Source: Candidatus Woesearchaeota archaeon (GTDB lineage: Archaea; Nanobdellota; Nanobdellia; Woesearchaeales; JABGUJ01). From it: a stretch of 64,000 nucleotides of DNA. Below the pieces are notes generated by a model that searched no databases, was not told where the DNA came from, and saw only the letters and a list, made by a program, of their open reading frames with translations. Below are positions 30,345 to 60,900 of this stretch, in pieces. The first letter of the stretch is position 1, and every line of letters begins with the position of its first letter. A program made the translations under genes and the position numbers. Location: assembly GCA_018646625.1 (NCBI GenBank), contig JABGUJ010000003.1, forward strand, positions 228,509 through 292,508, given 5' to 3'.

Positions 30345-31062
30345 CTACCTCATCAAGAACTGGAGGTTGAACATCATTAGCATATTGCATTGAAGCCATC
30401 CTACCTAACTCTTGATCGATCACTTGCGAAAATGCTTCAAACGGAGCTGCTCCAGGAACTAACTGTCCGTTAATAATAAACGAAGGAGTTCCTCTAACAC
30501 CTGCTGCCGCACCTTCTTTGAAGTCTTGCTGAACCAGGATTGACTTAACACCAGTATTAAGACAAAGACTAAACGTATCAACATCTAATCCCAATCCTGA
30601 AGCATACCCAATAAGAGAATCAACAGCCAAATCATCAGCATTCATGAACATAACATCATGCATTTCCCAAAACATGCCTTGATCTCTCGCACATTCAGCT
30701 GCTTCTGCCGCCTTCTTGGCTTTCTTATGATAGCTCATAGGAAAGTGCTTAAAGACTATATTTACTTGATCACCATAAGCATCATGAATTTGTTTTACAA
30801 CACCCACCGCTTTAGAACAGTAAGGACATTCAAAGTCCGAGAATTCTAAAATAGTAAGTGACGCACCAGGACTTGTACCCTGATCTAATCTTGAAAAGAT
30901 CACATCACCTGCACTCTTAGACATTTTAACTGAATCATTGATCTTTAAACCTGGAAAAACACTTCCAACATTCATTAAAAACCAACTTATGAAAATAATT
31001 GCAACCACTGCTAGAATAGGATAAAGATAATTTGTTTTCTTAACGTTTTTTTTCTTAGACAT
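30331..31062 (-). CDS. DsbA-family thiol-disulfide oxidoreductase, membrane-anchored
   Basis: EFSDFECPYC, KHFPM, AAECARDQGMFW, GVRGTPS. Confidence 0.9.
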   Translation of the reverse strand: MSKKKNVKKTNYLYPILAVVAIIFISWFLMNVGSVFPGLKINDSVKMSKSAGDVIFSRLDQGTSPGASLTILEFSDFECPYCSKAVGVVKQIHDAYGDQVNIVFKHFPMSYHKKAKKAAEAAECARDQGMFWEMHDVMFMNADDLAVDSLIGYASGLGLDVDTFSLCLNTGVKSILVQQDFKEGAAAGVRGTPSFIINGQLVPGAAPFEAFSQVIDQELGRMASMQYANDVQPPVLDEVVDES

Positions 31063-31116
31063 CCTTACACCCCTCGATAAAAAATAATGAAAAAAATGAA
31101 AATAAAAAAGAAAAAA

Positions 31117-38828: not shown

Positions 38829-40754
38829 TTAACGTCTCTCCATAATTTCTGCACAGACTTCAGAAATAAACTTATCAACCTTCTTCTCGCCATGAACTTC
38901 ATTATCACGAGTTCGAACATTAACAGTTCCATTCTCAGACTCAGAGTCTCCCACAACTAAAATATAATTAACATATTCAAGTTGCGCTTCACGAACCTTT
39001 TTCTTAATTGATTCAGAACGTGAATCTAACTCCACCCTGATACCTTGCTCAAACATTTGTTTCTTAATCTTCTCACAATACTCAGCATGTCTGTCAGCAA
39101 TAGGCAAGATCTTAACCTGCACAGGAGATAACCAAAGCGGGAACTTACCAGCATATTGCTCAATAAGTAAAGCCATAGTTCTCTCAAGACAACCAATGGA
39201 AGCTCTATGAATCACCATAGGTCTATGCTTCTTGCCATCTTCACCTTCGTAAGTCATGTCAAACCTTTCAGGCAACGCAAAATCAATTTGCACAGTAAAC
39301 AAAGTATCTTCCTTACCATACACATTTTTCATTTGCACGTCTAACTTAGGACCATAGAATGCCGCCTCATTATCCGCTTCAACGTATTCAATATCCAACT
39401 CATCAACGATCTTTTTCATGATCTTTTGAGAGTTAGCCCACGCTTCAGGATTATCAATATACTTTCCAGAACCATCAGTTGAACATTTAGAAAATCTATA
39501 CCAATAGCCAGTTAGTCCTAACACAGACATAAGATATTGTATCAACTCAACAACCCTTTTGAACTCATTTTCTAATTGATCAGGTCTACAAATAATATGC
39601 GCATCAGCCAAAGTAAATTGACGAACTCTAATAAGACCATGAAGTTCTCCCGACTGTTCGTTTCTAAACAAATCAGCAACTTCCGCATATCTCAGAGGAA
39701 GATCTCTATAACTCCTCATCTTAGATTTGTAAATCATAAACTGATGCGGACAAGTCATAGGTCTAAGACAAAACTCTTCTCCTCCCGATTCAAAAACAAA
39801 CATACTATCTTTGTAATGATCATAATGACCAGACATTTTGTACAAGTCACTCTTAGCCATCACAGGAGTTTCAGTAGGTATGTATCCACGTTTGTACTCT
39901 TCATCTTCAATAAACCTACGAAGAATTCTCTTAATAGTTGCACCTTTAGGACATAAAAGAGGCAAACCTTTTCCAATAACTTCACTAGTCGTAAAAAGAT
40001 CCAACTTCCTACCTAATTTATTGTGATCTCGCTTCTCAGCTTCTTCACGAAGACGAACATATTCCTTCAATTCCTTCTTATCAGGAAATGCCACACCATA
40101 AATTCTCTGCAATTGTTTATTCTTAGAATCACCACGCCAATATGCGCCAGCAATTTTAGTTAGTTTAAACGCCTTAATCATTCCAGTATTAGGAACATGT
40201 GGTCCTTTGCAAAGATTGTCATACTCTCCTTGAGAATACATGCTCACCACATCTTCAGGAATGGCATTAGCCAACTCTATTTTGTATGGATCGTTTTTGT
40301 AAAACTCAAGAGCTTCCGCTTTAGGAATATCTTTTTGAGTAATCTTAAGTTTTTCCTTAACAATCTTCTTCATTTCTTCTTCAATCTTCACAAGATCATC
40401 AGGACGCAAAGGTTCTTCAAGATCATAATCTTGATAAAAACCATCCGTCACTGCAACACCAACACCTAAGCCAATGTTTTGCCCCTTAAACAATCTCAAA
40501 ATAGCTTGAGTCATCAAATGAGAAGCACTGTGCCAGAAAATATCTTTTCCCTCTTCATCTTTAAATGTTAGAATTTTTAATTCACAATCAGTATTTAACG
40601 TAGTAGAAATATCTACCGCCTTACCATTAACCATTGCAGCAACCGAATTTCTTGCAAGACCTTCCGATATACTCATAGCTACATCGAAAGCCGAAACACC
40701 TTTATCAAACTCCGAAACTGAACCGTCCGGAAAAGTTATTTTCACTTTAGTCAT
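38829..40754 (-). CDS. thrS: Threonyl-tRNA synthetase, bacterial-type (TGS and editing domains)
   Basis: ITFPDGS TGS, WHSASH, LCKGPH, AYWRGD, RDHNKLG, PMTCP, GLIRVRQF, AFYGPKLD; SD GGTGA favours ATG 40754 (40760 possible). Confidence 0.97.
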   Translation of the reverse strand: MTKVKITFPDGSVSEFDKGVSAFDVAMSISEGLARNSVAAMVNGKAVDISTTLNTDCELKILTFKDEEGKDIFWHSASHLMTQAILRLFKGQNIGLGVGVAVTDGFYQDYDLEEPLRPDDLVKIEEEMKKIVKEKLKITQKDIPKAEALEFYKNDPYKIELANAIPEDVVSMYSQGEYDNLCKGPHVPNTGMIKAFKLTKIAGAYWRGDSKNKQLQRIYGVAFPDKKELKEYVRLREEAEKRDHNKLGRKLDLFTTSEVIGKGLPLLCPKGATIKRILRRFIEDEEYKRGYIPTETPVMAKSDLYKMSGHYDHYKDSMFVFESGGEEFCLRPMTCPHQFMIYKSKMRSYRDLPLRYAEVADLFRNEQSGELHGLIRVRQFTLADAHIICRPDQLENEFKRVVELIQYLMSVLGLTGYWYRFSKCSTDGSGKYIDNPEAWANSQKIMKKIVDELDIEYVEADNEAAFYGPKLDVQMKNVYGKEDTLFTVQIDFALPERFDMTYEGEDGKKHRPMVIHRASIGCLERTMALLIEQYAGKFPLWLSPVQVKILPIADRHAEYCEKIKKQMFEQGIRVELDSRSESIKKKVREAQLEYVNYILVVGDSESENGTVNVRTRDNEVHGEKKVDKFISEVCAEIMERR

Positions 40755-40790
40755 ATTCATTCACCTATATCTGCCGTCTAGAGGCCCTGT

Positions 40791-43393: not shown

Positions 43394-44359
43394 CTAGTCT
43401 TTACCCAAGAACCAAGCTGTTAAAGCAACATCCCTTTGCTTACCGCGTGCCTTTATCTGTACAACGTTTCTTCGCTCTAAAGATTTCAAACATCTTGACA
43501 AACTAGTTCTAGGTATTCCAGTATTGTGTCTCAAAGACGCTTGAGTACTCTTATTTTCATTACACATCAAGAAATTAACTATCTCTTTTTCATTAGTGCC
43601 AAGAGTAGGTAATATATCATCACAGCGCCCTTTCTTCACTTTTTTAGGCTTCTTAACCTTTTCAACAGAATTTTTAGAAGATAAAAAATAATACATTACA
43701 CCTGCCGCAACAAGTAAAGCAATCAAAGCCACACCAAGCACATAACCTAAAGAGAACGTCTTGTCTTTACCCTTAACCTTCATTTCAAGCGCTATATTCA
43801 CACTTTCAAGATTCCCTTGCGTCACAGTAATCTCAGAATAACCCAAATAACCTTCACTAGAAGCATACACAACATATCCACCAACTGGTAGAATATCAAC
43901 TCTAAACGAACCAAAACTATCAGATTTGGTAGGAAGATCAAATTCTCCGCACACAGCACACTCAAACTTCAACTCAGCATCTGGCACAACATTATCTAAA
44001 TCATCTTTAACAAACCCAGACACAGATCCTACCTTTTCTAGATATAAAGCAGCAGGACTCACTGAATCTTCTGTAACAACAACACTATCTTCACCATAAT
44101 ACATCGCCCTACCATTATCCATGACCCTCAAAGAAACAAACCATTCACCTTCTGTAAAAGGATAGTCGAAAACCCCATTCTCTAAGAATGTAGTAAAACT
44201 CTTTTGTTCTCCAGATTGAGAATTAATAAGCGTAAAAGAAACCTGCACCCCACCTAAATGAACATTATCAGAAGCATCCTTTAATACAATAGAATGCGAC
44301 AACACAGAAAGAGGTAAAACCAGTGCGAAAAACAATAAGAAAAACAGATTGCGCCTCAT
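43394..44359 (-). CDS. Membrane-tethered wHTH protein with extracellular carboxypeptidase-regulatory-like beta domains (COG2512-like)
   Basis: Signal peptide, GSVSGFVKD...VPDA...SDSFGSF...LPVGGY domain, TM, then NEKEIVNFL...TQASLR..TGIPRTSLSRCLKSLERR. Confidence 0.78.
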   Translation of the reverse strand: MRRNLFFLLFFALVLPLSVLSHSIVLKDASDNVHLGGVQVSFTLINSQSGEQKSFTTFLENGVFDYPFTEGEWFVSLRVMDNGRAMYYGEDSVVVTEDSVSPAALYLEKVGSVSGFVKDDLDNVVPDAELKFECAVCGEFDLPTKSDSFGSFRVDILPVGGYVVYASSEGYLGYSEITVTQGNLESVNIALEMKVKGKDKTFSLGYVLGVALIALLVAAGVMYYFLSSKNSVEKVKKPKKVKKGRCDDILPTLGTNEKEIVNFLMCNENKSTQASLRHNTGIPRTSLSRCLKSLERRNVVQIKARGKQRDVALTAWFLGKD

Positions 44360-44457
44360 ATCATAAATTACCTTTGAGAGATATATAAACGTTTTCTTAG
44401 ATTCAATGCATAAACACATCAAAATCTTTAAATACTAACTAAACAGAAAAACTCAAC

Positions 44458-45306
44458 ATGGCAAAAGGGGTGAAGAGTAAAAAGAACACTAAACGTATTT
44501 CTCCACTTAGAAAGACAATCCAAGCCATAAAAAGACATAAACTAATATTTCTAATGATCATCATAACTCAAATATTATTCTCATCACTATTACTATATTC
44601 ACACTACAAAATCCAAATACCAATCTTAACTGATGGAAAGGATATAATTGTAGGCGTACAAGAAAACATGCAAACCCAATCCAATCCCGCAGGCGACTAT
44701 AACGTTATGCGAGATTCCATCACATCAATAGTAGGCATTCAAAGTTTAGTTGATAGATTAATTAAAAACTTAATTTATTTATGCGGAATAAGCTTCGCAC
44801 TATGGATAATACTAAACGGATTAAACTGGTTCTTCACAATAAACATGCACAAGAAAAAGAAGTTGCATAATTTTTGTTTAAGATTTACTTTAACATCAAT
44901 AATATATCTAGTACCAATGACTCTAGCTCTCTGGTGGTTCATGAGTTCGTCGGTAAAAACATACCTTTTTGGAACTGCAAGAACCGCACCAGCAATAGGA
45001 AGCGCAGTAATCATCTTGATATTCGCATACTTCTTTTACATCACACTTAGTTTACTTCACAAAGATTCATTCAAAGAAATCATTAAACTAACATTCAAGA
45101 TTGGAATTAAAAAGATAGGAAGAGTACTGGCAACATACATCCCAATAATAATACTATACATAGCATTATTTCTTACAATGTATCATTCTTTAGAAGCCAA
45201 CATATACTTAATATATCTAGAAATCATTGCATTCTTATTCCTAATAATCCTATCACGAAGCTACATCTATTTCTCAATAAATAATATAGAAAAAGAAATA
45301 AAATAA
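44458..45306 (+). CDS. Multi-pass membrane protein, hypothetical
   Basis: About six hydrophobic segments; TTTAAATA box upstream. Confidence 0.65.
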   Translation: MAKGVKSKKNTKRISPLRKTIQAIKRHKLIFLMIIITQILFSSLLLYSHYKIQIPILTDGKDIIVGVQENMQTQSNPAGDYNVMRDSITSIVGIQSLVDRLIKNLIYLCGISFALWIILNGLNWFFTINMHKKKKLHNFCLRFTLTSIIYLVPMTLALWWFMSSSVKTYLFGTARTAPAIGSAVIILIFAYFFYITLSLLHKDSFKEIIKLTFKIGIKKIGRVLATYIPIIILYIALFLTMYHSLEANIYLIYLEIIAFLFLIILSRSYIYFSINNIEKEIK

Positions 45307-45318
45307 AAAAGATACAAT

Positions 45319-45858
45319 CTATTTTAGATAAGACTGTTCTTTAGCAAGATTATGAGCCTTAGCATAATGACCCTTAAGATCTTTTAAAACGTCTCCAGGT
45401 TTTGAACCAAGCTTAGCCGCCAAACCACCAGAAATCTTAGAACCATGAGGTTCAACATGCATATGATAATGACCCGTTCTTAAATTGTCAAGTTCATTAG
45501 CTGAGTGAGATCTTTGAATTTGATCAAGAGCTTGATAATCACCACTTCTGACTTTATTAAGAAACTCGCCCGGAGTCATCTCCAGTCTTTCCGCCATAGA
45601 CCTGACTTCAGCAAAAGCAATTTCAACATCGGCTTCATTTACTTTACCTTTACCGACACCACCAGCTCTCGCATCGGCCCTATACTGAGCAATTACCGTT
45701 CCAATATATTTTCTAACCTCAGCGTCACTTGAATCAGCTTTGGGCATATTTTTGGCTTTAGCCTGAATATAAGCTTTAGCATGAATTTCTTCTGCTTTTT
45801 TTACTTTATCGACTCCTGCGCCGATTAATTTATCAAGATTTATTTCATCATCTGCCAT
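45319..45858 (-). CDS. Hypothetical protein
   Basis: 179-aa ORF with SD GAAGGTGA. Confidence 0.65.
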   Translation of the reverse strand: MADDEINLDKLIGAGVDKVKKAEEIHAKAYIQAKAKNMPKADSSDAEVRKYIGTVIAQYRADARAGGVGKGKVNEADVEIAFAEVRSMAERLEMTPGEFLNKVRSGDYQALDQIQRSHSANELDNLRTGHYHMHVEPHGSKISGGLAAKLGSKPGDVLKDLKGHYAKAHNLAKEQSYLK

Positions 45859-46115
45859 ATTACTCTCACCTTCCTCCTTTTAGATTAAACAATAAGCATT
45901 AGCTTGTTATCAAATACCATACTAATATACCCATATAAAGCTTTCGCTTAGAGAAGACACCCAAAGTACTATTATTCTACACAACAAACAATGACATTTT
46001 TGTGACATTAATATAGACTCCAGCTCAACACTCTTTAAAAAGCATTTTACCATAGTAACTAACAAGTAACGATAATGTCCCAATTATATAACTAGTAACA
46101 TGAGGTACTAATAAA

Positions 46116-47969
46116 ATGGCAAAAAAGCAAGTCAAGAAGAAACAAGAGAAAAAAGACATTGAGAAAAAGAAAAAAGAAATAACTCTTACTGAAGAAGAAA
46201 AGAAATTACCTAAAGAGTCTCAAGAAAAATTAATCAAGATCAAAAAAGAACTTGAACAATTCAAGGAAGAAGTTCTAAAGAAATTTGATAAATACATCAC
46301 AGGCATTGCTTTGCTGCCACCTCCAAAACCTGAACAAGGTAAACAAGTTGATAAAGATAAAATCAATGTGCTAGTTCTTGTTGATGATTCGGACTCACAG
46401 AAAATGAGTAAAGAAGAGTTAAGATCAAAACTCGGCGCAATCATTGAAAAGATTGGAAAAGACATTAACAAAAACATTGTAACACAAACAATTATTCATA
46501 CAGAATTATGGCAAACATGTTACGACAGCAAACACGAACTTCTACAAACGATTGCACTTGGTGCTCCAATATACGATACAGGAATGTTATCAGCTGTAAA
46601 GATCGGAGAAATCCACAAAAGCATGGTTCTAAAAAAGTTCGAGAAATATATTGTAAGCTATGTCTTATTTGGTTCATTAACTAGAGGAGAAGCAACTCCT
46701 GAAAGTGATATTGACGTTGCAATCATAATCGATGATACTGACGTTAAGAAGATGACCAGAGCAGAGCTTAAAGATAAGTTAAGAGCAATCATCATCGGAA
46801 TGGGTGTTGAAGCTGGCGAAATGACTGGCATCAGAAACAAACTAAACATCCAAGTATATATTTTAACTGACTTCTGGGACAGCCTAAAAGAAGCAAACCC
46901 TGTTATCTTTACTGTTCTTAGAGATGGTGTTCCTTTCTACGACAGAGGAATTTTCATGCCATGGAAACAGTTGCTAAGAATGGGTAAAATAAAACCATCC
47001 GCTGAAGCAATTGACATGTTTATGCATACTGGAGAACAAATGGTTTCCAGAGTAAAAGCCAAGATTAAAGGATTAATCGAAGCAGACATTTACTGGGCAA
47101 CTTTAACTCCAACTCAGGCAGCTTTAATGTTGTATGGTATTCCGCCACCAACCCCAAATGAAACTATCAACTTGTTGGAAGACATTTTCTGTAAGAAAGA
47201 GAAACTTTTAGAGAAAGAATATGTTGACATCATGAAAGAGATCAGAAAATACTACAAAGAGTTAGAACACAACTCAAAAATGGAGATCTCTGGAAAAGAA
47301 GTTGACGATTTGCTTGCAAAATCTGAGAAATACTTGAAAAGAATCAAGAAACTTTTCGAAGAGATTGAAGTCATGAAAGAAAAAGAAGAAATGGTCAACA
47401 CTTACGAATCTGTTGTAACCATCATAAGAGATATTCTAAGGCTTGAAGGCATTGAAAGAGTAAAGAACGCAGAAATCATTAAACTATTCGAAACAGAAAT
47501 GATACATCTAGGAAAAATGCCTGAGAAGTACATTAGGATTTTAAACCACATAGTTAAAGCAAAGAAAGACTACGACACTGGTAAGCTAAACAAAGCAGAG
47601 ATCAACAAAGTAAGAACAGAATCTCGCGGCTTTATTAAGTTCATGGTTGAGTACATGCAAAGAAAACGAGGAAAAGAACTCGAAAGAACCAAGATAAGAG
47701 TTAAGCACGGAGACAAGTACGGCGAAGTCATATTGCTAGACAAAGTAGCATTCATCGTACATGATCTAGACGCCGAAGAAAGAAACGTTACTAAAGCAGA
47801 CATTAAAGCTGACGGCAGCCTAGGACCCACAAACGACTCTTCACTTGAAGAACTCGAGCAACATCTTGCAAAGATTGAACTTCCTCCAAAGGTTTTCATC
47901 AAAGAACCAATCTTTGAAAACTTGAAAGGCGTCTTTGGAAAAGATGTTGAAATTCTAATGAACTACTAA
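46116..47969 (+). CDS. Tandem Pol-beta-type nucleotidyltransferase with HEPN-like helical domain
   Basis: Intact VLFGSLTRGEATPESDIDV in the second repeat; degenerate first repeat; helical domain with AALMLYG.PPP.P and KELEH. Confidence 0.8.
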   Translation: MAKKQVKKKQEKKDIEKKKKEITLTEEEKKLPKESQEKLIKIKKELEQFKEEVLKKFDKYITGIALLPPPKPEQGKQVDKDKINVLVLVDDSDSQKMSKEELRSKLGAIIEKIGKDINKNIVTQTIIHTELWQTCYDSKHELLQTIALGAPIYDTGMLSAVKIGEIHKSMVLKKFEKYIVSYVLFGSLTRGEATPESDIDVAIIIDDTDVKKMTRAELKDKLRAIIIGMGVEAGEMTGIRNKLNIQVYILTDFWDSLKEANPVIFTVLRDGVPFYDRGIFMPWKQLLRMGKIKPSAEAIDMFMHTGEQMVSRVKAKIKGLIEADIYWATLTPTQAALMLYGIPPPTPNETINLLEDIFCKKEKLLEKEYVDIMKEIRKYYKELEHNSKMEISGKEVDDLLAKSEKYLKRIKKLFEEIEVMKEKEEMVNTYESVVTIIRDILRLEGIERVKNAEIIKLFETEMIHLGKMPEKYIRILNHIVKAKKDYDTGKLNKAEINKVRTESRGFIKFMVEYMQRKRGKELERTKIRVKHGDKYGEVILLDKVAFIVHDLDAEERNVTKADIKADGSLGPTNDSSLEELEQHLAKIELPPKVFIKEPIFENLKGVFGKDVEILMNY

Positions 47970-48065
47970 GTTCATTTTTTCTTTCTTTATTATTTTGTTG
48001 TTATAAAGCCTCATTCTATGAAATAGAACGAAAACTATAAAAACTCACCAAAACAAGATAATAGC

Positions 48066-48596
48066 ATGTCTACTAAAGCTAGAGGTGGTCCACCGTCAAG
48101 AATCAAATTTGAAGGAGTATATGATTGGGATAATCTATACAAACTCTTCCATAGCTGGTTTGAAGAAAGAGGATGGGACCATGATGACAAGACATACAAA
48201 CACAAGACTTCTAGCTTGGGAAGGGAAGAAGAACTAATAATAAACTGCTGGGTAAAAGAATCAGAATACATCAAATATCACATAAGCCTAGATATTCATA
48301 CCTGGAGTAACCAACCAGCAGAAGTAATCAAAGATGGCAAAAAAGTTCAATTGTGGAAAGGAAGAATTAGAATTATAATTAGTAATGAAATAGAATATGA
48401 TTGGCAAAACAGATTTGAGGGTAGTAGCTTCTTAACAAAAATAAGAGAATTTTATCACAAACATGTGTTTGTAGATGAAGATAACGCATTAATACAAGAC
48501 AAAGTATACTATATTTCATATAATTTACACGAAGCAATCAAAAAGTTTTTAGACATGTACTCACAAGAGAATGTATATAGTAAATCATCGTTTTAA
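48066..48596 (+). CDS. Hypothetical protein, paralog of the next gene
   Basis: IKFEGVYDWDNLYKLFHSWFEERGW; DWQNRF. Confidence 0.75.
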   Translation: MSTKARGGPPSRIKFEGVYDWDNLYKLFHSWFEERGWDHDDKTYKHKTSSLGREEELIINCWVKESEYIKYHISLDIHTWSNQPAEVIKDGKKVQLWKGRIRIIISNEIEYDWQNRFEGSSFLTKIREFYHKHVFVDEDNALIQDKVYYISYNLHEAIKKFLDMYSQENVYSKSSF

Positions 48597-48602
48597 TAGA
48601 AA

Positions 48603-49103
48603 ATGGCTGAAAGAAAAGTATTAGTTGATGGCGTAAATCTGAAGTATGAAGGATTATTCAACTTCAAAGACCTGTACAACATATTAGATAGCTGGTTATC
48701 TGAGAATTCATATGATAAACGAGAACACGAAAATCTTGAAAAAGTTACACCCACGGGAAAATTCATAAGAATAGAACTAAGACCTTGGCGTACTTCTTCA
48801 GATTATGAGAAAGTAGAAATGAAAATTGTTCTTACAGTACATGATATGGTAGATGTTGTTGTTGAAAAAGACGGCATGAAAATGAAACTCAACAAAGGCA
48901 GCGTCAGCATAGTATTCAGCGGATTTTTATTAACAGATGTAGAAGGAAGATGGACATCTAAAGCATTCTTTTTCTTTTTATCTCAAGTATTTGATAAATT
49001 CATATACAAAACTCAACTGGGAAGATTAGAGGCCACACTGAAACATGATGTTATGATGCTTCACAAAACATTGAAATCTTTCCTTAACATGCACAGATAT
49101 TAG
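48603..49103 (+). CDS. Hypothetical protein, paralog of the previous gene
   Basis: LKYEGLFNFKDLYNILDSWLSENSY; DVEGRW; K.FL.M end shared with the paralog. Confidence 0.75.
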   Translation: MAERKVLVDGVNLKYEGLFNFKDLYNILDSWLSENSYDKREHENLEKVTPTGKFIRIELRPWRTSSDYEKVEMKIVLTVHDMVDVVVEKDGMKMKLNKGSVSIVFSGFLLTDVEGRWTSKAFFFFLSQVFDKFIYKTQLGRLEATLKHDVMMLHKTLKSFLNMHRY

Positions 49104-49147
49104 AGCAAAGTTTAAATATGGACCTTTTTCTCTGGGAACCACCTCAA

Positions 49148-49269
49148 GTGGGGGTAGCAAAGTCTGGTCAAATGCGCAGGACTTAAGGCTATCTTTATGA
49201 GACACTTACCTCGTAAGTAAGATATCCTGTCTCTTAGTGAGTTCGTGGGTTCGAATCCCATCCCCCACA
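49148..49269 (+). tRNA. tRNA-Leu(UAA) with 36-nt intron (49188-49223) at canonical 37/38
   Basis: Acceptor GTGGGGG/CCCCCAC, anticodon stem CAGGA/TCCTG, TAA at 49184-49186, long variable arm, TTCGAAT T-loop. BHB: CTTA/TAAG helix with 3-nt bulges. CCA not encoded. Confidence 0.93.
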
Positions 49270-49356
49270 TTTTCTTTCATGTATAGCTAAGAAAAACGAA
49301 TTTGTATATACAGTATTTAGCAATTCTAATATATCAGTTCTAAAACAATTTTTGTC

Positions 49357-49827
49357 ATGGGGGAACAACCAAGCAGACAAGAACTAACAGATCTATTAGA
49401 TAGAATAGAAAGAAGACTCACTCCCGAATTAGATTCTAACGATTCAAGGATTATTAGAGTAAGAGCTACAGATTTTAGAATAAAAGATGGCGGATCATTA
49501 GAACGATGGTACGTTGTTCCGAACGGATTCTGGGGCAGAGTCGCCGATGAGTTTCAAAGAATTGTTACATTCGACGACAGTCCAGATCTTGGAATTGCAT
49601 ACAGTGCAAGAGATAATGGTAGATTAAACATAACTACGCGCATGAGATACAGAAACGGAAGAGCTTTAGTAAGAACAGCAAGAGCAGAATTAGTTAGAAC
49701 AAGGATGAACGGAGGAACTGCCTTCAAGCTATATGACTTATTCAATACAGATGATGTAATGGAACTACATCGAGAAGTTGATGCACTATGTCTCGAACCT
49801 TCACCAAGAAGACCCTATAATACTTAG
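49357..49827 (+). CDS. Hypothetical Arg-rich protein between tRNA genes
   Basis: 156-aa ORF with TATA-like box upstream; no recognised domain. Confidence 0.55.
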   Translation: MGEQPSRQELTDLLDRIERRLTPELDSNDSRIIRVRATDFRIKDGGSLERWYVVPNGFWGRVADEFQRIVTFDDSPDLGIAYSARDNGRLNITTRMRYRNGRALVRTARAELVRTRMNGGTAFKLYDLFNTDDVMELHREVDALCLEPSPRRPYNT

Positions 49828-49888
49828 TTTAATTCTATATAAGAAAACATTAATATATGGCTAGTTAGTTCTGGCAAGAAAACAAAGT

Positions 49889-49961
49889 GCCTCTGTGGCT
49901 TAGTGGCTATAGCGGCCGCCTAGTAAGCGGCAGGTCGGGAGTTCAAGTCTCCCCAGAGGCT
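49889..49961 (+). tRNA. tRNA-Thr(AGU)
   Basis: GCCTCTG/CAGAGGC acceptor, anticodon arm GCCGC-CTAGTAA-GCGGC (AGT at 49922-49924), GGGAG-TTCAAGT-CTCCC T arm, U73. Confidence 0.9.
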
Positions 49962-50095
49962 TTCTTATTATTACAAAATAACTAGATAATGCTCTAAAAA
50001 CAGCAAACTACATAAACAGTTAATAGTACACATATACAGTACAACTATATAAACAAAAAGCTTTAATAGCATACCTCAACAAAAACACATAAAAT

Positions 50096-50167
50096 GCTTC
50101 AGTGGCACAGTGGTAGCGCACTACCTTGGTAAGGTAGAGGTCGAGGGTTCAACTCCCTCCTGAAGCT
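50096..50167 (+). tRNA. tRNA-Thr(GGU)
   Basis: GCTTCAG/CTGAAGC acceptor, CTACC-TTGGTAA-GGTAG anticodon arm, GAGGG-TTCAACT-CCCTC T arm, U73. Confidence 0.95.
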
Positions 50168-50423
50168 TTTCTAATTTCTATTATACACCCTTATAGAAAA
50201 ATTGATAAATGATAAACCCCTAAAAGTCAATGTGGTCGTAAGACAACATAGGGGGGTTAAATTCTACAGAATTTAGCTAAGTAGCGAAACATTTATATAT
50301 GAAATAACCACACGTGAGTAACAACAGGGTGGGATTCGTATAACTTTGCACGCAAAGCTATGTAAGTTATAGCTAAGCAATAGTAGGTCGTCGACGATCA
50401 AATGCAAATGTTGGGGGAGTAAA

Positions 50424-53423
50424 TTGGATACAACTAATAATAAAGCACTCATTTTGGCATTAAGAGATAAAGGAGTTAGTTCTACAGATGCAGATAATAT
50501 AGCCAGAAGAACACAATCTGGTGAATTTGGAACCCCCGCAGAATTTCTAAGTATTGTTCAATCCGACCAATTCGATCCTACATTCTTAACTCCCGCAAGT
50601 AATTTTGTAGCAGAAGCAGAATCCACACTCGACTCAGTTCTAAATAGATATCAACCAGACTTAACAAGAATACAAGATGTTGTAAGAAGAAGTTATGACG
50701 CACTTGCAACTGTTAGCAGAATAGAAGACAAAACTCCCGCAGACATCACACTTACAGAAGAATTAGCTTCAACAATTGTTGATGCAGTAAATTTATTCGA
50801 ACAAACTCAACTAAAAGCACTAAACGCAGCAGAAGAAGCTACAGATTTAGTACACGATACATTCTATGAAAAAGAAGGAAACTTCACTTATGATACTGAT
50901 AATCTATTATTCGCAGAAAATGGCGCAAACATAATTAGAGCAGTAACTCAACCCGCAGTTGATCTTGCAGCAAATTTAATTCCTAATTCTTTAATCGACA
51001 AAGAAAAACTCCAAGCAGCATATAGATTTGCAACAAAAGCAACAGCAGTAAGTGTTGCTGCAGCAGTTGGATTTTTTGCTCTACCCCACGTTGGTAGTAT
51101 GTTTATGAACGCAGTAGACAATTACTCAGCAGGAAATGGCGTTGATTTTGCTAACATGACTCCTTTTGATTTAGTACCTTCTGCTTATGCACAAGACGCA
51201 GATCCACCTGAACCAAACTTGGGAGATCTTGTTGAACAACCACCTGCCAAAGCAGCAGACGCACCAAGACCAAGGCACAGAATAATTGGAACAGGTACTA
51301 GCGATCTAGGTGACAGAGATCCTAGTCTAGAACCAGGACCAGCTGGCGTCACAGGACCAGTAGTTCTCGGAACACAATATTCTGATCGCGTTACAACTAC
51401 AGCAGTAACTGGAGATTCACCACTAGAACAAATCATACTTCAAAGAAATGCAGAAGGCAGTCATTACATCGGCATTAAAATGCGAAATGGTGCCACAAGT
51501 GGAAAATCTGTGTGGTCTATTTTAAGAAGCATGGGCGCAAAAAAACTTGGACCTCTCATTAGATACATAAGAGATGAACAAGTGGATTTACTCGACGATG
51601 CAATCGCACTAGCAATAACTCAAGATAATCCCAGAGAACGCACTCGTTACAGAAGACTTAAACATGCATTCATGACTTCAGATACTCAAAAGGTTACTGA
51701 TTGCGATAGAGTAAGTGACCAAAGCGTAGTTCTCAAAAGATATGGTTCAGAAAGATGCCTAGTTCCATTTCCAGATGGCATTCCATTAGATAAAAAAGTT
51801 ACAGACATTTACTATTTAGATATTGATACATTAGTAAGAACATACGGACTAGATCCTGAGAAAATAGCAAGAGTACACCAACAAATAGTCGAAGGAACAC
51901 ACCCTGCTGCTGAAGATGCAACCCCTGGAAAAACAGATGATCTTGTTGCAAGACCTCCTGTAGAACCAGAACCTGTTGCTGGAAGAGGACCAATAACAGG
52001 AACAGATTGCACAGATTGTTCCGACGAAGAAGCCAGACGAAGAGTTGGCGCACTAGAAGGAAGAGTAGGTGGAATTGAAGATCATATTCTTACTGATTTG
52101 CGACCCAGAATTGATGCTTTAGAATTAGTCAAAAGATTCGAAGATGGTCCTAGTCAAGGAATGCACATTACTGATTACGATCAACTTGCAAGAGGTTACA
52201 TTAGAAACCATCACGCATTAAGAACTAATTCAAGAGCAATGATAGAATACAATCAAGCTGTTGATCACGCATTAGCAACTATTGATCCAGCTCTAGTTGA
52301 TAGACACCAATATTTACTATTCTTAAGAACAGATAATGGAGCAAAAGAATTACTAGCATTTAATCCATTTAGCGCACAGGTTGTAGGCTCAGCAGTAGTT
52401 AGCGACGAACTTGCCACATTTATGAAAGACATGATAGAAAACGATAAAGTATACACTTCAAATTTCTTTGAATTCAGAAGCTTAAGAAACATAGAAAGCC
52501 TGGTTCCTAATTTTGGTGAAAAGATCGGTCCAGGAAAGTTTACAGAATTAGATGACCCAAGGGAACTAAAAGGTGCAGATCGCGCAGCTTACAGCGTAAA
52601 CAGAGTTATTCAATATATGCTTAAAGGAACTTCCGAACAACCGGGAGGTATTGAAGCAGTTTTACAATCAGAAGACAGCAGACAAGAATTATCAAGAATA
52701 ACTAAAACAGAAGTTACAGCAGATGATTTAGATAATCTGGCTTTCGGACTTGCAGGAGATAGAGTAGTTCTATACAATACAGAAAATGGTGTAGTCTATG
52801 ATACAGGAATGTTAGATGAAGAAACTTCAGAGTTCATAAGACAAAACATCCCAGAAACAGAACCAATGATTCTTGCAAGATATGTAAATCCTAGTAATAA
52901 ACCCGCAGTTAAAACACACATTCGTGGATTAGATAATATTGAACAATTTAACCATGACATGTTTCCGGATGTTACAGAAACAACAAGATCATACAAGGTC
53001 ACTTACTGGACTGACGATAAACAAACACAAGTCATGTTCGAAATACCTGACATTGACAGTAGAGGTGCAATGGTGTATGACACATTAGATCAAATGCCTG
53101 GTTTAGATTTTGCAAAACCAGTTCGAGTTGGAGACAGATATGATTGTACAATCAAAATTGATCCAGCAACAGGAGAAGTTCTTCAATTTGGAGATGCAGC
53201 AGGAGAAACGGCTAATGTATTCAACCCTTGGGGTCCAACACATTTAGCAATTGAGAATGGTCAAGGTCATATTTACACAGAACAAGCACTAACTGAAGTT
53301 ACATACTTAGGTATTGCAGCAGCGATTATTTATGGAATTGTGAAAGCATCCACAGGTGGTAAAGGCGGATCAGGCAATGGCCCACAAGGTGGATTCAGGA
53401 ACACAGATCCATGGGATCGATAA
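50424..53423 (+). CDS. Large hypothetical membrane protein (999 aa)
   Basis: TTG start behind SD GGGGGAG; hydrophobic segments near aa 205-225 and near the C-terminus; Pro-rich linkers; short coiled coil. Confidence 0.75.
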   Translation: MDTTNNKALILALRDKGVSSTDADNIARRTQSGEFGTPAEFLSIVQSDQFDPTFLTPASNFVAEAESTLDSVLNRYQPDLTRIQDVVRRSYDALATVSRIEDKTPADITLTEELASTIVDAVNLFEQTQLKALNAAEEATDLVHDTFYEKEGNFTYDTDNLLFAENGANIIRAVTQPAVDLAANLIPNSLIDKEKLQAAYRFATKATAVSVAAAVGFFALPHVGSMFMNAVDNYSAGNGVDFANMTPFDLVPSAYAQDADPPEPNLGDLVEQPPAKAADAPRPRHRIIGTGTSDLGDRDPSLEPGPAGVTGPVVLGTQYSDRVTTTAVTGDSPLEQIILQRNAEGSHYIGIKMRNGATSGKSVWSILRSMGAKKLGPLIRYIRDEQVDLLDDAIALAITQDNPRERTRYRRLKHAFMTSDTQKVTDCDRVSDQSVVLKRYGSERCLVPFPDGIPLDKKVTDIYYLDIDTLVRTYGLDPEKIARVHQQIVEGTHPAAEDATPGKTDDLVARPPVEPEPVAGRGPITGTDCTDCSDEEARRRVGALEGRVGGIEDHILTDLRPRIDALELVKRFEDGPSQGMHITDYDQLARGYIRNHHALRTNSRAMIEYNQAVDHALATIDPALVDRHQYLLFLRTDNGAKELLAFNPFSAQVVGSAVVSDELATFMKDMIENDKVYTSNFFEFRSLRNIESLVPNFGEKIGPGKFTELDDPRELKGADRAAYSVNRVIQYMLKGTSEQPGGIEAVLQSEDSRQELSRITKTEVTADDLDNLAFGLAGDRVVLYNTENGVVYDTGMLDEETSEFIRQNIPETEPMILARYVNPSNKPAVKTHIRGLDNIEQFNHDMFPDVTETTRSYKVTYWTDDKQTQVMFEIPDIDSRGAMVYDTLDQMPGLDFAKPVRVGDRYDCTIKIDPATGEVLQFGDAAGETANVFNPWGPTHLAIENGQGHIYTEQALTEVTYLGIAAAIIYGIVKASTGGKGGSGNGPQGGFRNTDPWDR

Positions 53424-53444
53424 TTACATTTACGGAGGATTACA

Positions 53445-54923
53445 ATGTTTAGAAGAAAAGCACAAAACATCAAACCGGTAACATCACTTGACGATATTAG
53501 ACACGAGCCTACTACACAACCAAAAGCTAGAAGCTATGGTTTTGGAATGTTTGCATCTGCGGCACTATTACTCCTAGCATTAGGCGTAGGCGCATGTAGC
53601 GGAAGTTCAGTAGAAGGTGAAGATTTACACGGCGCTCCAGATAATATTTGTGCTTTAGCTGATTGCTCCGGACCAGACCCAATTCCTCCAAGATACGATC
53701 CTATAGATACTTTTGATGAACTATCAGATTACGTAACTTTTGATCCTAACCCTGTTAGCGGTGGACTAGATATCCAACCAGATGAAATGGAAAAACTTTA
53801 CGCTAGCAATACTAACAATATAAGAGAATTACTAGGAAAATACTTCGCAGATGTTGTAGAAGCAAATCCTGACTTATCTCCCGTTCCTTTAACTTCAACA
53901 GATGAGTATCAAACTAACAGAACTGTTGACAACTTAATTGGAGAATTGGCAAACGGCGACGATGCATTTGACGCTTACAGATTCTTAGTAAAAGACGGAA
54001 AATTATACTTAGAATTAATTGATGAAGATGGAGACTTCACTAACGGAGTATTCGTGTTTGACGACATGGATCTTGCAGATGCTGTAAGAAAAGCAGTTGA
54101 AGAACCCGATCCAGTTGTACCAACAATCGAATACAAAGTCGATTTAACAAAAAGCGTAAATGAAGTTATCTTAGGTAATGATTTAACAGAAGATGATTCC
54201 ATTTTATACAATCTTAACGTTCAAAGAATCACAAGATATGGTTTAGATGATGCAGAGATAGAAAACATCGAAGTACCAAATGTACTATACACAGTAAGAC
54301 TTGGCGGCTCTGACAGTTATCAGTTAAGAGCAGGAGAAAGCGTTGAGTTTGATTACGAAGGAAATACTGTTAATGCATTTGTTGATGAACTAGGAGATCT
54401 TTTAGTAGATTTCTCAGGTAATGGTACAAGTGAAGTATTTGTAGCTTCGGCAACTGTAGAACTTGAACCAGGATTAGATGAAACAGTTAGTGGTAGCAAC
54501 CCTGTTACTCACCAAGCGCCTTCAGTAGAAGATCCAGAATACGATCTACAAGATGCAGAACTTCTATACGGAGTAGCATTTGATAGCTATACAGATAGTA
54601 TGCCAACTGGTATGGATTACATACTAGATGGAGCAACTCTAAGAAATGTATTACAAAACGCAGTAGCATCTGACTCTGTTGAAGGAAACCCAACACTTAG
54701 CTCAGAAGTTCTACCAGGCGTAACATTAGTAGACGCGATCTTAGGTATTGAAACTGCAGATGGCAACGTTGGTTACTTAGATGGAATTGGAGATGATATA
54801 ATCTCAGTTGCAGCTAGTCCAGATCAAGTTGCATTTGAATTTGCAGATGGAACATACGGTGTAGCTACAGGAACAATGGCAGCAGATCTTTACGATCCAA
54901 TTGACGAATCTATGCAATGGTAA
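53445..54923 (+). CDS. Acidic surface lipoprotein, hypothetical
   Basis: SD GGAGG; hydrophobic stretch ending in lipobox-like LGVGAC; D/E-rich beta-type body. Confidence 0.72.
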   Translation: MFRRKAQNIKPVTSLDDIRHEPTTQPKARSYGFGMFASAALLLLALGVGACSGSSVEGEDLHGAPDNICALADCSGPDPIPPRYDPIDTFDELSDYVTFDPNPVSGGLDIQPDEMEKLYASNTNNIRELLGKYFADVVEANPDLSPVPLTSTDEYQTNRTVDNLIGELANGDDAFDAYRFLVKDGKLYLELIDEDGDFTNGVFVFDDMDLADAVRKAVEEPDPVVPTIEYKVDLTKSVNEVILGNDLTEDDSILYNLNVQRITRYGLDDAEIENIEVPNVLYTVRLGGSDSYQLRAGESVEFDYEGNTVNAFVDELGDLLVDFSGNGTSEVFVASATVELEPGLDETVSGSNPVTHQAPSVEDPEYDLQDAELLYGVAFDSYTDSMPTGMDYILDGATLRNVLQNAVASDSVEGNPTLSSEVLPGVTLVDAILGIETADGNVGYLDGIGDDIISVAASPDQVAFEFADGTYGVATGTMAADLYDPIDESMQW

Positions 54924-54930
54924 AATAAAA

Positions 54931-57900
54931 ATGGCAGAAAGAAAACAATTAAGACAATTATTCGCATTGATTTGCATCGTAGTAATGCTTTTCGCAAACG
55001 CACAGTTCGCATTAGCAGGTGCATCACCAATAACAACCTCTGCAAGTGTACTTACCAGTCCATTGTTAATTAACCAACCCATCTCTATCAGAGTTTCTGC
55101 ATCCGATCTAGATGATAACGTTAATTCACTAAAACTAGCAAGAATCGAATTAGGATCTCAAACAGAACAACAATACTATTACGGATGTAGTAGTGGCAGT
55201 TGTACTCATGATTTTGTTATTTACCACAACACTCCCGGTACTTACGAATACACAGCATTTGGTAGAAACGCAATCAATCAAATTAGCGCAACATCATTCA
55301 CAATCACAGTTAGCGAAGCAGCAAGCATTGACAGCTTCACCGTTAAAGCAAAAGCTTACGATCTAACAACTACAGCATCAATCAACCCATTCACATTCAA
55401 CGTATTTAACGAAAACGAAAACTACATAACTGGAACTACAGGAAATCCTGAAGCAGCAGTATACAATATTGACAGCAACGCAGTATTAAATTTAGAATAT
55501 CTAGCAGATGGATACGAAAGAGATGGAGACATGGCATATTTTGATGCAGATCTATCTACTTGTTCAGGTTCAAGCTGTTCAGTTAGTAGTAATGGGTATT
55601 CAACTGATTGTACTTTCATCACTGCAAATAGCAGATGGACTTGTACAGTAGACAACATTGGTGGCGGAACTTTTGATTACCAATACAAAAAAGAAGGCAG
55701 CCAAGATGTTATTTATTTATACAATAATATGCTAGAGGAAGCAGCAGCCCTCCCTCCTGCAATTGTAGGATTCCCTGATTCAATCACAATCCACGAAGGA
55801 AGTTATAGCGATTTCTACTTACTAGACAACTATGTAATTGATGAAGATACCAGCTTTGCATATTTAGACTGGAGCATTTCATATGATTCACAAATTGGAT
55901 ACAATCTAGATTCTGAAAAAGTAAGATTCTATGCAAAGAACTCAGACTACCACGGAACTAGAACATTAACACTTACAGTAGAAGATCCAGAAGGCGGAGA
56001 AGATACTCATGATGTTGACATTGTTGTAGAAAACATTAATGACGCACCAGTACTTGCACCTCTTTCAGATGTAGAAATTGATGAAAACGAAACTGCAACT
56101 TTTACAGTTAGTGCAACAGACTCTGATCTAGACGATTTAACATATTCATACATTTCAGGTCTAACTTTAACTGAAGGCAGCCTAAACACTTACAGCTACA
56201 CTTCAACTTATGATGATGTAACAACTGGAGCATACGAAGAATATCAAGTTGAATTCAAAGTAGAAGACGGAAATGGTGGCGAAGACACTGAAACTGTTAC
56301 AATCAAAATTAATCATGTAAACAGAGCACCAACTTTAGACTCTGTAGAAATAACACCTCTTAGCCCAGTATTAGATGAAACACTAACTTGTTCATACACT
56401 GGACTAAATGATGAAGATGTTCAAGACACACCAGTTGTCCAATATGAATGGCGACTTAATGACGCAATGTTCCTATCAGGAGAAAGCGCCAGCACTCTAG
56501 ATCTTTCATTAATTGACGAAGTAATTGGAGACGAAATAACATGTATTGCAACTCCTAATGATGGAACTATAGATGGTGAAAGCAAACAAGCTACTGTAAC
56601 TGTAGTAGATGCTAGCAGCCCAATCATACATTCAATTGACGTAACTCAGCCAGCATACATTGGAAATACTTTAACATTTAGCGCGACTGTAACTGATGAC
56701 ATCTCAGTCAGCGAAGTAACATTCACAATTAACTCAATCGCATATTCAAGCGAATTAACACAAGTAGGACAATTATACACTCTACAACTTAGTGCAGAAA
56801 GCATCGGTGTTGGAACATTTAACTTCAGAGTTGACGCAGAAGACAACTCAGGTAACGCAGCAACACCTCAAGACATGAATTTTACTATTGAAAATGAACA
56901 AGTTATTCCTGTAATCCAAGAAGTACTTGCAGTTCCTAGTTCAGTAGTTCAAGGAAACGATGTACAGCTTAGAGCAAGAGTAACTGATAACGACGCAGTA
57001 TCATCTGTAGAAGTAACATTTAACGGAATCACATTAGGTATGAGTTCAATTGGTGGAGATTGGTATCAAGCAACCATCTCAACTACAACTCTGGCACCTA
57101 ACACATATACATTTACTGTTAATGCAGAAGATAACGTAGGAAACGCAGCAGTTCCAATGGATGGAACATTCGACGTAACTATATTAGATACTGAAGCTCC
57201 AGTTATTGAAGAAACTAATGCAACACCTAATCCAGTAACTCAAGGAGACGATGTAACTCTTAGTGCAAGAGTAACTGATAATGTTGCAGTCAGTACTGTA
57301 ACTACAACAATCAGTGGAATCACACTTAACGCATTTCCAGCTGGCGGAGATTGGTACGAAGTAACCATCTCAACTCTAGTATTGCCTCTAGGAACTAACC
57401 TATTCTCATTCAACGCAGTAGATAATGAAGGTAATGTAGCTACAACAATTGTTGACTCATTCACAATTGTAGAAGAAGACACTACTGGACCATCTATCTC
57501 AAACATTACTGTAACTCCAAATCCAGTTACTGAAGGTAACATAGTAACCATCACAGTAGTTGTTGATGATATTTCTGGTGTAGATGAAGTTGTTCTAACT
57601 TACGGCACCACAGATGTAACTATGACAAATACTGGTGGAAATACATACTCAGTAGAAATTGACACAACTGGTTTCGCTGCAGCAGAATACACATTTACTA
57701 TTGCAGCTACAGATAATGAAGCTAATATTAATACTGCAGACAGCAGCTTTACTGTTGAAGATGCAGATACTGAAGCACCAGTTATTGAAGAAACTGACGC
57801 AGTTCCTAATCCAGTAACTATTGGAGATGAGGTAACTCTTAGTGCAAGAGTAACTGATAATGTCGCAGTAACTTCTGTAACATTTATTCTAAACGGAATT

Positions 57901-60900
57901 CCATTTACTATGGCCGCTGTTGGAGGAGACTGGTATGAAGCAAATATCGATACTGGCGCTTTGTCGCTAGGAACTCACAATTTCACTGTTAATGCAATTG
58001 ATGCAGAAGATAACAACGCAGTTCCAGTTAACGACACTTTTGAAGTAACTGACGTACCAGATACTGAAGATCCCACTATAGAAGATATTACTTTAACTCC
58101 TAACCCAGTAACTCAAGGAGAAAACGTTACAGTATTAGTTAAAGCATCTGACAACACAGGTGTCGATACAGTTACTGCAGAAATTGATGGAGTTGAATAC
58201 AATTTACCTCTAAACGCAGCAGGACATTACGTAGTTGATGTTGACAGCTCAAGCCTGGCACCCGGAAACTACACAGTCACTATCACCGTTACAGACGCAG
58301 CTGGAAACAGCGTAGTAGATACTAGCAACACATTGGAAGTTCTTCCTGGAATTGTAGTAGATGCTGAAGCTCCAGTTATTGAAGAAGTTGAAGCAACTCC
58401 TAACATAGTAACTCAAGGAGATAGTATAGCAATTGGAGCAAAAGTAACTGATAATATTGCAGTAACATATGTATTATTCACTCTAGATGGAGTATCACTA
58501 GAGATGTCTTCAGTTGGTGGAGATTGGTATCAAGCAACCATCGGCACAGCAACTTTAGCACCAGGATCACACACATTCACAATTAACGCAAATGATGCAG
58601 AAGGAAACAATGCATTACCAGTTAACGGCACATTCACTGTTGAAGAAGATGTAGACAGCGAAGCACCTGTATTCATTGATACTACCATCCCAACTAACAC
58701 AATCAATCTAGGAGATGGATTCACACTCGAAGCAGAAGTTACTGACAATGTCGCAGTTGACGATGTAAGAGTATCATTCGGAGTTGGCAGCATAAACATG
58801 CCTAACTTAGGAGGAGATGATTACGGAGCAGGACTCAACTCAAGCTCATTAGGTGTGGGAATATTCTCAGTACAAATGACTGCAGAAGACACATCAGGAA
58901 ACATAGCTTACGAATACGCAGGATTAATCTCTATCATAGACAATTCTACAAATTCAAGCGATGATCACGAAGCTCCACTTATTACAATAACCAGTCCAGT
59001 ACAAGATGCAACTTACAATTACACAGACATCTTAGTTAGCATTTCAGCTACAGATAACGTAGGAGTATCATATATTAGATACTCAGTTAACGGAGCACCA
59101 TTTGTTCCATACACCAGCATTACAACCGAAAGCTTTGTTGACATGCAAGAAAACACACTAGAAGTTGTTGCAAATGATGTTGCAGGAAATGTAGCATATG
59201 CACAAATAACATTCTTAGTTAATACTTCAAGTAACAACGAAAATGGAACTGATGATTCATTCCCTGTTGCTACACTAATTACAACACCAGAATCAGGAGA
59301 AGCCCCACTAAATGTTGCATTCAATTGCTTCGTTAATGGCGGAGATTCAAGCTATGATTTTGAAATGAACTACAACGACAGCACAGCATCAGACATGGTA
59401 AACAACACACTTACTACGTTACAAGGATTCTTGCACCAATATACTCTTGCAGGAGATTACGGAGCAGCATGTATTGTTTCAGACGATGATGGAGACTATT
59501 CCATCGCAACAGCAAACATACACGTAACTGCACCACCTCAAGTTAATCATTCCCCCGTTATTGAAATGGTTGGAGCATCACCTAATCCGGTTACCGAAGG
59601 CACAGATGTAAATCTACAAGCAACTGTAACTGATGTTGATGGAGACATGAACCTTGTTCAGTTTGAATTCCAAGGAACATTCTATAACAATGTGTACGAT
59701 GGAGATGATAATTACGAATTTGACTTACCAACTACAGGATTAGCACCTGGAGTATACTACTTCAACGTTGGCGCTGAAGATTTAGCATTCCTAACTGATG
59801 GACCGGTACAAGGAAACTTTACAGTAATTGGAAATATAATTAACGATACAGAAGCACCGGTATTCAACTTTGTAGACTATCCAACTCAAATTGAACTAGG
59901 ACATCCTGCCACATTCAGAGCAAACATAACTGATAATGTTGCTGTAAATGATGCAAGACTAGAAGCATACAACACATGGGCAATGCCAAACGTTGGCAGC
60001 GACTGGTACGAAACTACTCAAATAATTCCCGTCCCAAGTCCAGGATTATACTCCTTCTGGATGGCAGCACAAGATACTTCAGGTAATCTAGGATTTGAAT
60101 ACTTAAGTCCAATCAACTTTACAAACAGCAGCGTTGATCCAAATGAGGATAACGAAGCTCCAACTATCAAAATATACAGTCCAAAGAATAATGCAACTTA
60201 CAACTACACAAATATCAAAGTAAGCATTGATGCTCAGGACAATGCAGGAATTGCTAGCTTAGAATATTCTATTGATGGCACATTACCTCAAGCATATCCT
60301 GGAGTATTTTACTACAACTTTACAGACATGCAAACTCATACTCTAAGAGTTATAGCTATTGACATTGCAGGAAATACAGCAATTGTTGAAATATCATTTG
60401 ATGTTAACACCAGTGCTAACTACACAGAAGGTGTTGATCACTTCCCTGCAGCAACTCTTACAGCAAACGTTACTGAAGGAACTGAACCACTAGACGTACT
60501 ATTTACTTGTGCAACTACTGATGGAGACGCAGACTTCAACTATCATTTATCATTCGGAAACGGTCAAGCACCTGAAGATGTAACTACAAACGCAACTTCG
60601 GCAGAATTCACTTCAACCTACAATCAAGGAGTATACACAGCAGTGTGTAAGCTAACTGATGTAGATGGAGATTATTCGCAAGCAAGCATCAATCTTAACG
60701 TTACAGAAGATCCTAACACAAACCACAGTCCAAGTATTGACGCTGTCGGTTCATCACCTCTTGGTGTTGTAACAGGCAACAATGTAACTTTACAAGCATC
60801 TGTTAGCGACTTAGATAACGACATGAACACAGTATTCTTCGAATTCGAAGGAATCAACTACACAGATTTATACAACGGAGATAACAATTACGAATTTAAC

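Follow-up and report, generated by a model that had tools for sequence, protein, structure and literature searches.

Archaea are described as essentially devoid of tRNAs with ANN anticodons and of the TadA/ADAT deaminase in the available parts of three sources (PMC8007984; PMC11066159; bioRxiv 10.64898/2026.05.15.725136), which agrees with what the original prediction had stated for the gene reported here. According to the accessible passages of the last source, GtRNAdb holds three ANN anticodons among 10,517 archaeal tRNAs, all of them in four-fold boxes (bioRxiv 10.64898/2026.05.15.725136). Our gene resembles these three in being archaeal, very rare and from a four-fold box; the passages seen name neither their genomes nor their anticodons.

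The same anticodon occurs in Mollicutes. In the available part of the source, the tRNA-Thr(AGU) of Mycoplasma capricolum carries an unmodified A34 and reads all four ACN codons, from ACU as the best to ACA as the worst, with ACA served by a U34 isoacceptor (PMC3711424); the parallel with a Mycoplasma A34 tRNA-Thr(AGU) that had been drawn earlier agrees with this account. The gene described here shares with the Mollicutes tRNA the anticodon, the four-fold box, a small AT-rich genome, and the proposed mode of decoding. However, M. capricolum is a bacterium, while the present host is an archaeon that encodes a G34 isoacceptor next door. M. capricolum reportedly has only the AGU and UGU tRNA-Thr.

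Among bacteria at large, four-fold-box ANN tRNAs are functional and tolerated, they occur in genera with 60–70% A+T, Thr-AGT is the commonest high-scoring ANN tRNA other than ACG (90 of 132), and the retained four-fold ANN tRNAs have replaced the GNN isoacceptor, as far as the available text of the preprint goes (bioRxiv 10.64898/2026.05.15.725136). Thr(AGT) and Leu(AAG) of Lactobacillales (Leuconostoc, Oenococcus, Lactobacillus, and others) are likewise four-fold ANN tRNAs of genomes with 60–70% A+T; in the parts of the sources at hand, they replaced GNN, seemingly through a G34A change, and TadA is present in most of these species (bioRxiv 10.64898/2026.05.15.725136; PMC8007984). By contrast, in the archaeal case the body of the AGT gene is of the U34/C34 type and the GNN gene has been retained; a TadA is not known from this domain.

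In eukaryotes, tRNA-Thr(AGU) has the same encoded anticodon, which ADAT2/ADAT3 convert to IGU. Eukaryotic I34 tRNAs have been linked to the translation of adhesion proteins rich in Thr, Ala, Pro, and Ser (PMC8266599), and the giant Thr-rich adhesin gene beside the archaeal AGT tRNA is a loose parallel. However, the eukaryotic system depends on a heterodimeric deaminase and leaves no place for G34 isoacceptors, and neither feature is seen at the archaeal locus. More generally, a box with an I34 tRNA normally has no G34 tRNA, and vice versa (PMC8879553; PMC8266599). Our literature search, which was not exhaustive, yielded no paper on ANN tRNAs in DPANN archaea and nothing relevant on the tRNA anticodons of Woesearchaeota; PMC11537232 does not mention tRNA.

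The tRNA-Thr(AGT) gene

We analyzed one stretch of 64,000 nucleotides, referred to as the window. Its features considered here are the following.

38829..40760, minus strand: threonyl-tRNA synthetase (ThrRS) of bacterial type, expected to charge both Thr tRNAs
49148..49269, plus strand: class II tRNA-Leu(TAA), interrupted by a 36-nt intron at 49188..49223 (Rfam, 47.3 bits; ARAGORN, (taa)i(41,36))
49844..49857, plus strand: promoter-like element, an A-rich stretch and TTAATATA, 32–45 nt upstream of the AGT gene, of putative function
49889..49961, plus strand: tRNA-Thr(AGT) gene, 73 nt, with no intron and no encoded CCA (ARAGORN; Rfam RF00005)
49922..49924, plus strand: its anticodon A34 G35 U36, with A34 at 49922 (sequence and ARAGORN)
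49962..49973, plus strand: T-rich 3′ trailer ttcttattatta (ttcttatt), a possible archaeal termination tract
50096..50167, plus strand: tRNA-Thr(GGT), the isoacceptor with G34 for this codon box (ARAGORN; Rfam, 66.8 bits over model positions 1–71 of 71)
54901..63999, plus strand, open at the window end: giant gene of a surface protein with Ig/PKD repeats, >3033 codons, 12.4% Thr

ARAGORN called tRNA-Thr(agt) on the plus strand at 49889..49961, with the same result under its intron option. Rfam model RF00005 matched the gene over its whole length (positions 1–71 of 71) at 65.1 bits, with a gathering score of 29, and the GGT neighbor scored much the same. The anticodon loop is C32 U33 A34 G35 U36 A37 A38, flanked by the stem halves GCCGC and GCGGC (five pairs), and the T loop is UUCAAGU. 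The acceptor stem starts with G1-C72, C2-G71, and C3-G70, and the discriminator is U73. The identity set of tRNA-Thr consists of an NGU anticodon (G35, U36), G1-C72, C2-G71, and U73, and it is complete in the AGT gene. Of the features claimed from the sequence beforehand, the cloverleaf with the loop CT-AGT-AA is borne out by ARAGORN and by the full-length RF00005 match, the Thr features C2-G71 and U73 are both present, and the tRNA-Thr(GGU) placed about 135 nt downstream is separated by a spacer of 134 nt (49962..50095). The minimum free energy of the gene is −33.7 kcal/mol (z = −2.61), and 1 of 200 shuffled sequences folded as well. This fold reproduces the acceptor and T arms but has no canonical D arm; hence, the cloverleaf assignment rests on the covariance model and ARAGORN.

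Anticodon calls starting with A are often artifacts in archaea. In two archaeal MAG loci of our comparison set, L070 (2866..2954) and L044 (1976..2064), ARAGORN reported ‘tRNA-Arg(acg)’ and ‘tRNA-Tyr(ata)’, 89 nt each; both are probably misread intron-bearing tRNAs. An intron artifact of this sort was ruled out for the AGT call, since the gene is 73 nt long and has no insertion. We conclude that this is a genuine full-length tRNA-Thr gene with A as the wobble base in an archaeal genome, and that it is a rare archaeal example of an already known kind of tRNA.

With the intron option of ARAGORN, the window contains three tRNAs in total, namely Leu(TAA), Thr(AGT), and Thr(GGT). The tRNA-Leu gene was missed by ARAGORN at default settings and was recovered by Rfam and by the intron option; its intron follows position 37, the canonical 37/38 site. 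A permissive Rfam scan of 44000..56000 gave one extra match, which was far below the threshold (26.8 vs. 65.7 bits).

Origin of the gene body

To place the AGT gene among other Thr tRNAs, we scanned genome contigs with its 22-nt anticodon arm and variable loop, with N at position 34. The arm is common to many bacteria and archaea: the scan returned at least 119 public loci, with 120 matches listed, which include no Woesearchaeota locus and not the source genome itself. The anticodon is TGT in 109 of the 120 matches listed and CGT in the other 11; GGT and AGT do not occur among them. The GGT neighbor in the window has an anticodon arm that differs from that of the AGT gene. Since the arm is identical to those of TGT and CGT genes among the matches listed, and to none of a GGT gene, the body appears to be of the U34/C34 type. 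The body can be aligned with nine tRNA-Thr genes of other organisms. At position 9, both Thr tRNAs of the window have G, while eight of the nine comparators have A and one has T. The shared G9 suggests a native origin of the AGT gene in this lineage and argues against a recent import. Taken together, the AGT gene looks like a native Thr tRNA body of the U34/C34 type with one substitution at position 34. The original prediction had suggested tRNA-Thr(CGU) as its possible source. The comparison agrees with this in so far as it places the body with C34/U34 tRNAs rather than with G34 ones; it does not single out CGU, and a UGU ancestor seems at least as likely.

We also ran ARAGORN on 20 of the 119 listed loci (14 archaeal and 6 bacterial). 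In all 20, the TGT or CGT gene had no further Thr tRNA next to it, and therefore orthology cannot be argued from gene order.

The whole finding hinges on one base in an arm that is otherwise identical to those of TGT and CGT genes, and the gene was selected for being anomalous. It is conceivable that the A at 49922 is an error of the assembly or consensus, or represents a minor allele, with an ordinary tRNA-Thr(UGU) or tRNA-Thr(CGU) as the true gene. We consider this very unlikely. The assembly looks clean, with no Ns and with long ORFs intact, including the one of >3033 codons. The proteins flanking the tRNAs have letter-for-letter copies on 14–23 public contigs, the longest being 843,390 bp, which means that the stretch is not a one-off chimera and that the genome is small. 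Moreover, by a rough estimate, a single-base error is far rarer than the rate of 3 in 10,517 at which ANN anticodons are found among archaeal tRNAs.

Putative expression signals and genomic context

All three tRNA genes have a TATA-like octamer upstream. It is TTAATATA at 49850..49857 (−39..−32) for Thr(AGT), TTTAAATA at −37..−30 for tRNA-Leu, and TTTAATAG at −34..−27 for Thr(GGT). The motif WWWWVNTTWAWATA, an A/T-rich stretch followed by TTWAWATA, has 10 sites in the window where 2.95 are expected; none of 100 shuffles reached 10, and the site upstream of the AGT gene is among the ten. T-rich tracts are also found 3′ of tRNA-Leu and Thr(GGT). The TATA-like box upstream and the U-tract downstream that had been noted for the AGT gene are thus both found, with similar ones at the neighboring tRNAs. 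With a like box and a T-rich trailer, the AGT gene looks as transcribable as its neighbors, and it is probably transcribed.

The genes downstream, from 49357 onward, are poor in Lys and rich in NNA codons. We considered a foreign island beginning at the tRNAs and rejected it, as the difference in codon usage tracks the strand across the whole window. None of the six flanking proteins matched PHROGs, 48900..50500 is free of repeats of ≥14 nt, whether direct or inverted, and the 3′ ends of tRNA-Thr(AGT) and tRNA-Leu each occur just once in the window. A phage origin was rejected as well: the sole match in a blastn search against 50,697 phage records was to a single tRNA-Ile of an Erwinia phage, present as two records, and was partial, covering 77% of the query with 80.7% identity.

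Between tRNA-Leu and tRNA-Thr(AGT) lies an orphan ORF of 156 aa (49357..49827, plus strand), rich in Arg and poor in Lys. It is the sole member of its 90% cluster, and the identical sequence is found on 23 contigs. As a candidate tRNA enzyme it was rejected, having no Pfam, NCBIfam, or PHROG match and a poor Atlas model (pLDDT of 0.40) with no usable match.

Host lineage and threonyl-tRNA synthetase

Pfam and NCBIfam identify ribosomal protein L1, SRP54, pyruvate phosphate dikinase, and ThrRS in the window. Markers of archaea are L10/P0 with the RL10P insertion domain (archaeal/eukaryotic), TrmB-type regulators, and a GH57 enzyme. Among the best 120 relatives listed for SRP54, 18 are named by organism, comprising 13 Woesearchaeota and five Nanoarchaeota; the best non-self identity among the relatives listed is 74%. 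Given the SRP54 relatives and the tRNA intron, the host is a DPANN archaeon of the Woesearchaeota/Nanoarchaeota kind. An archaeal host had been proposed from the sequence, and the P0-type L10, the intron of tRNA-Leu, and the SRP54 relatives confirm it. The genome has 63% A+T.

The ThrRS is of bacterial type. It scores 671.8 bits with the TIGR00418 thrS profile vs. 260.3 bits with the archaeal-type model, and its full-length structure matches are the enzymes of Staphylococcus aureus (1nyq, 666.8 bits) and Escherichia coli (1qf6, 494 bits). The identity is 60–65% to Woesearchaeota, which are the nearest named relatives, and 56–57% to Clostridia. Other Woesearchaeota share the bacterial-type ThrRS, which suggests that the lineage received it from bacteria long ago.

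Several other genes of the window deserve mention. A 171-aa ORF (7397..7912, plus strand) consists almost entirely of Lys/Ala/Arg/Val/Pro repeats, with 44% Lys and pI of 12; its predicted product resembles a histone-H1-like or DNA/RNA-coating protein. Close to it, a small ORF (6754..7083, plus strand) looks by eye like a putative translation initiation factor aIF1A. On the minus strand, 29736..32868 holds three genes in a row whose products are secreted thioredoxin/DsbA-like proteins; one of these contains a GILT domain, and such a cluster is unusual for a small archaeal genome.

Codon usage and the giant Thr-rich gene

The plus strand of the window contains 23,500 A vs. 16,964 T and 13,441 C vs. 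10,095 G. Third codon positions follow the strand: the 22 minus-strand ORFs favor NNT and NNG, and the 25 plus-strand ORFs favor NNA and NNC, with no switch of the skew within the 64 kb. In four-fold boxes, T-ending codons have a share of 0.50–0.70 in the minus-strand ORFs, and A-ending codons a share of 0.43–0.67 in the 24 plus-strand ORFs that remain when the giant gene is left out.

Threonine codons conform to this pattern. The minus-strand ORFs have 63% ACT, 2% ACC, 23% ACA, and 12% ACG, so that in this AT-rich genome ACU is the most frequent codon for Thr on one strand; the plus-strand ORFs other than the giant gene have 29% ACT, 13% ACC, 53% ACA, and 5% ACG. The ratio ACT/(ACT+ACA) is 0.74 on the minus strand, where the equivalent for the other four-fold boxes is 0.73, and 0.35 vs. 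0.33 on the plus strand excluding the giant gene. In 46 of the 47 ORFs counted there is, therefore, no codon signal specific to Thr. Neither is there any depletion of ACA or ACG: in the minus-strand ORFs, ACG makes up 12% vs. 7–20% for the corresponding codons of other boxes, and ACA 23% vs. 13–31%.

The exception is the giant gene, which has Pfam matches to Big_7, Big_3_5, Big_13, and PKD. Here, ACT/(ACT+ACA) is 0.54 (191 of 351), compared to 0.28 for the other six four-fold boxes. The excess has a Fisher odds ratio of 3.0 with p ∼3e-18, a value that is inflated, as the gene is repetitive and its codons are not independent. Still, Thr exceeds the other boxes in ten out of ten 300-codon segments and in the terminal stub of 33 codons, and the excess of ACT is present in every next-base context. 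N-X-T glycosylation sequons were rejected as the cause of the preference, with ACT:ACA at 29:27 inside the sequons vs. 162:133 outside. The excess has the direction predicted by an extra ACU-reading capacity; it is a correlation in one gene.

One might go further and suppose that in this DPANN lineage an A34 (or I34) tRNA-Thr was taken on specifically to decode ACU and is co-adapted with the adjacent giant adhesin genes, which are rich in Thr and prefer ACU. We hold this to be quite unlikely.

The codon data bear also on another explanation, in which a former CGU tRNA-Thr or a duplicated UGU one mutated at position 34 and was kept by drift, and the gene would be a leftover with a neutral or slightly deleterious effect. 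The absence of a Thr-specific signal in all ORFs but one and the lack of depletion of ACG and ACA relative to other boxes fit this explanation, as does the G34 isoacceptor still being kept. The genome is small and reduced, and the AGT tRNA would add little to decoding; besides, the nearest relatives in the protein set are just 70–74% identical, implying that the lineage is isolated. On the other hand, the tRNA body, the promoter-like box, and the trailer are all intact, spare tRNA genes are rare in small genomes, and the neighboring giant gene prefers ACT. In addition, four-fold-box ANN tRNAs worked when tested in E. coli, according to the available passages of the preprint (bioRxiv 10.64898/2026.05.15.725136). 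On balance, we regard a leftover as unlikely.

Proposed decoding by the A34 tRNA

The reading that we prefer, with about even confidence, is that the A34 tRNA-Thr is native, probably transcribed, and acts as a reader of ACU with unmodified A34 beside the G34 isoacceptor. A U34/C34-type tRNA-Thr body would have given rise to it through a single exchange of base 34. The ThrRS of E. coli reads G35, U36, and the first acceptor pairs, and is not known to read position 34. With recognition of G35, U36, and the top of the acceptor, A34 should not block charging, and the bacterial-type ThrRS of the host should still charge the A34 tRNA. As in decoders of the Mollicutes type, A is present at position 34 of a four-fold-box tRNA (49922..49924). 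This A34 is most likely left unmodified, and would form a Watson-Crick pair with ACU and pair weakly with the other ACN codons; the weak pairing would be harmless because ACN is a four-fold box. Decoding would be shared with the G34 isoacceptor 134 nt away and presumably with a U34 isoacceptor elsewhere in the genome. Unlike the bacterial ANN tRNAs, which replaced GNN, the A34 tRNA coexists with a retained GGT gene and so could be redundant. The analysis itself establishes that the gene is intact, along with its promoter-like context, body type, and host lineage, and from these we infer its transcription, charging, modification state, and decoding range.

Alternatively, A34 could be converted to inosine by an unrecognized archaeal or horizontally acquired TadA-like deaminase, and the tRNA would then read ACU, ACC, and ACA. 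Such a tRNA would be useful, since ACA is the main plus-strand Thr codon (53%), and the lineage does acquire bacterial translation genes, as exemplified by its ThrRS with 56–57% identity to clostridial enzymes. In bacteria, a TadA homolog is found in 88% of the species with a non-ACG ANN tRNA, in the part of the preprint available (bioRxiv 10.64898/2026.05.15.725136). However, tRNAs with I34 are expected to lack a G34 isoacceptor, owing to the usual mutual exclusion of the two within a box (PMC8879553; PMC8266599), and tRNA-Thr(GGT) is present here at 50096..50167. No cytidine/adenosine-deaminase family was matched among the 51 window ORFs scanned with Pfam and/or NCBIfam; the window amounts to ∼8% of the presumed genome, taking the 843,390-bp contig as most of that genome. 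The available parts of two sources report archaea to have no TadA/ADAT (PMC8007984; PMC11066159), and our literature search for DPANN archaea with tadA or wobble inosine returned nothing relevant. The terms K11991, tadA, and ‘adenosine deaminase’ have zero occurrences in six supplementary files of PMC8421398, which is not evidence of absence. Overall, conversion to inosine appears very unlikely, and we retain an unmodified A34 reading ACU as the preferred explanation.

Implications

The near-absence of ANN anticodons from archaea is a textbook regularity, used in arguments on the evolution of the genetic code and of wobble. The present case is one gene in one genome. A well-formed ANN tRNA in a reduced DPANN genome would be a natural test of whether the translation machinery of archaea tolerates an unmodified A34, of whether one box can accommodate both an A34 and a G34 isoacceptor, and of whether AT-rich, strand-skewed genomes favor Watson-Crick reading of NNU codons. 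If A34 were converted to inosine, the gene would reveal a new archaeal wobble deaminase. If the tRNA were a dedicated ACU decoder, it would be a case of local tRNA supply matched to codon demand, in a domain considered to exclude ANN anticodons.
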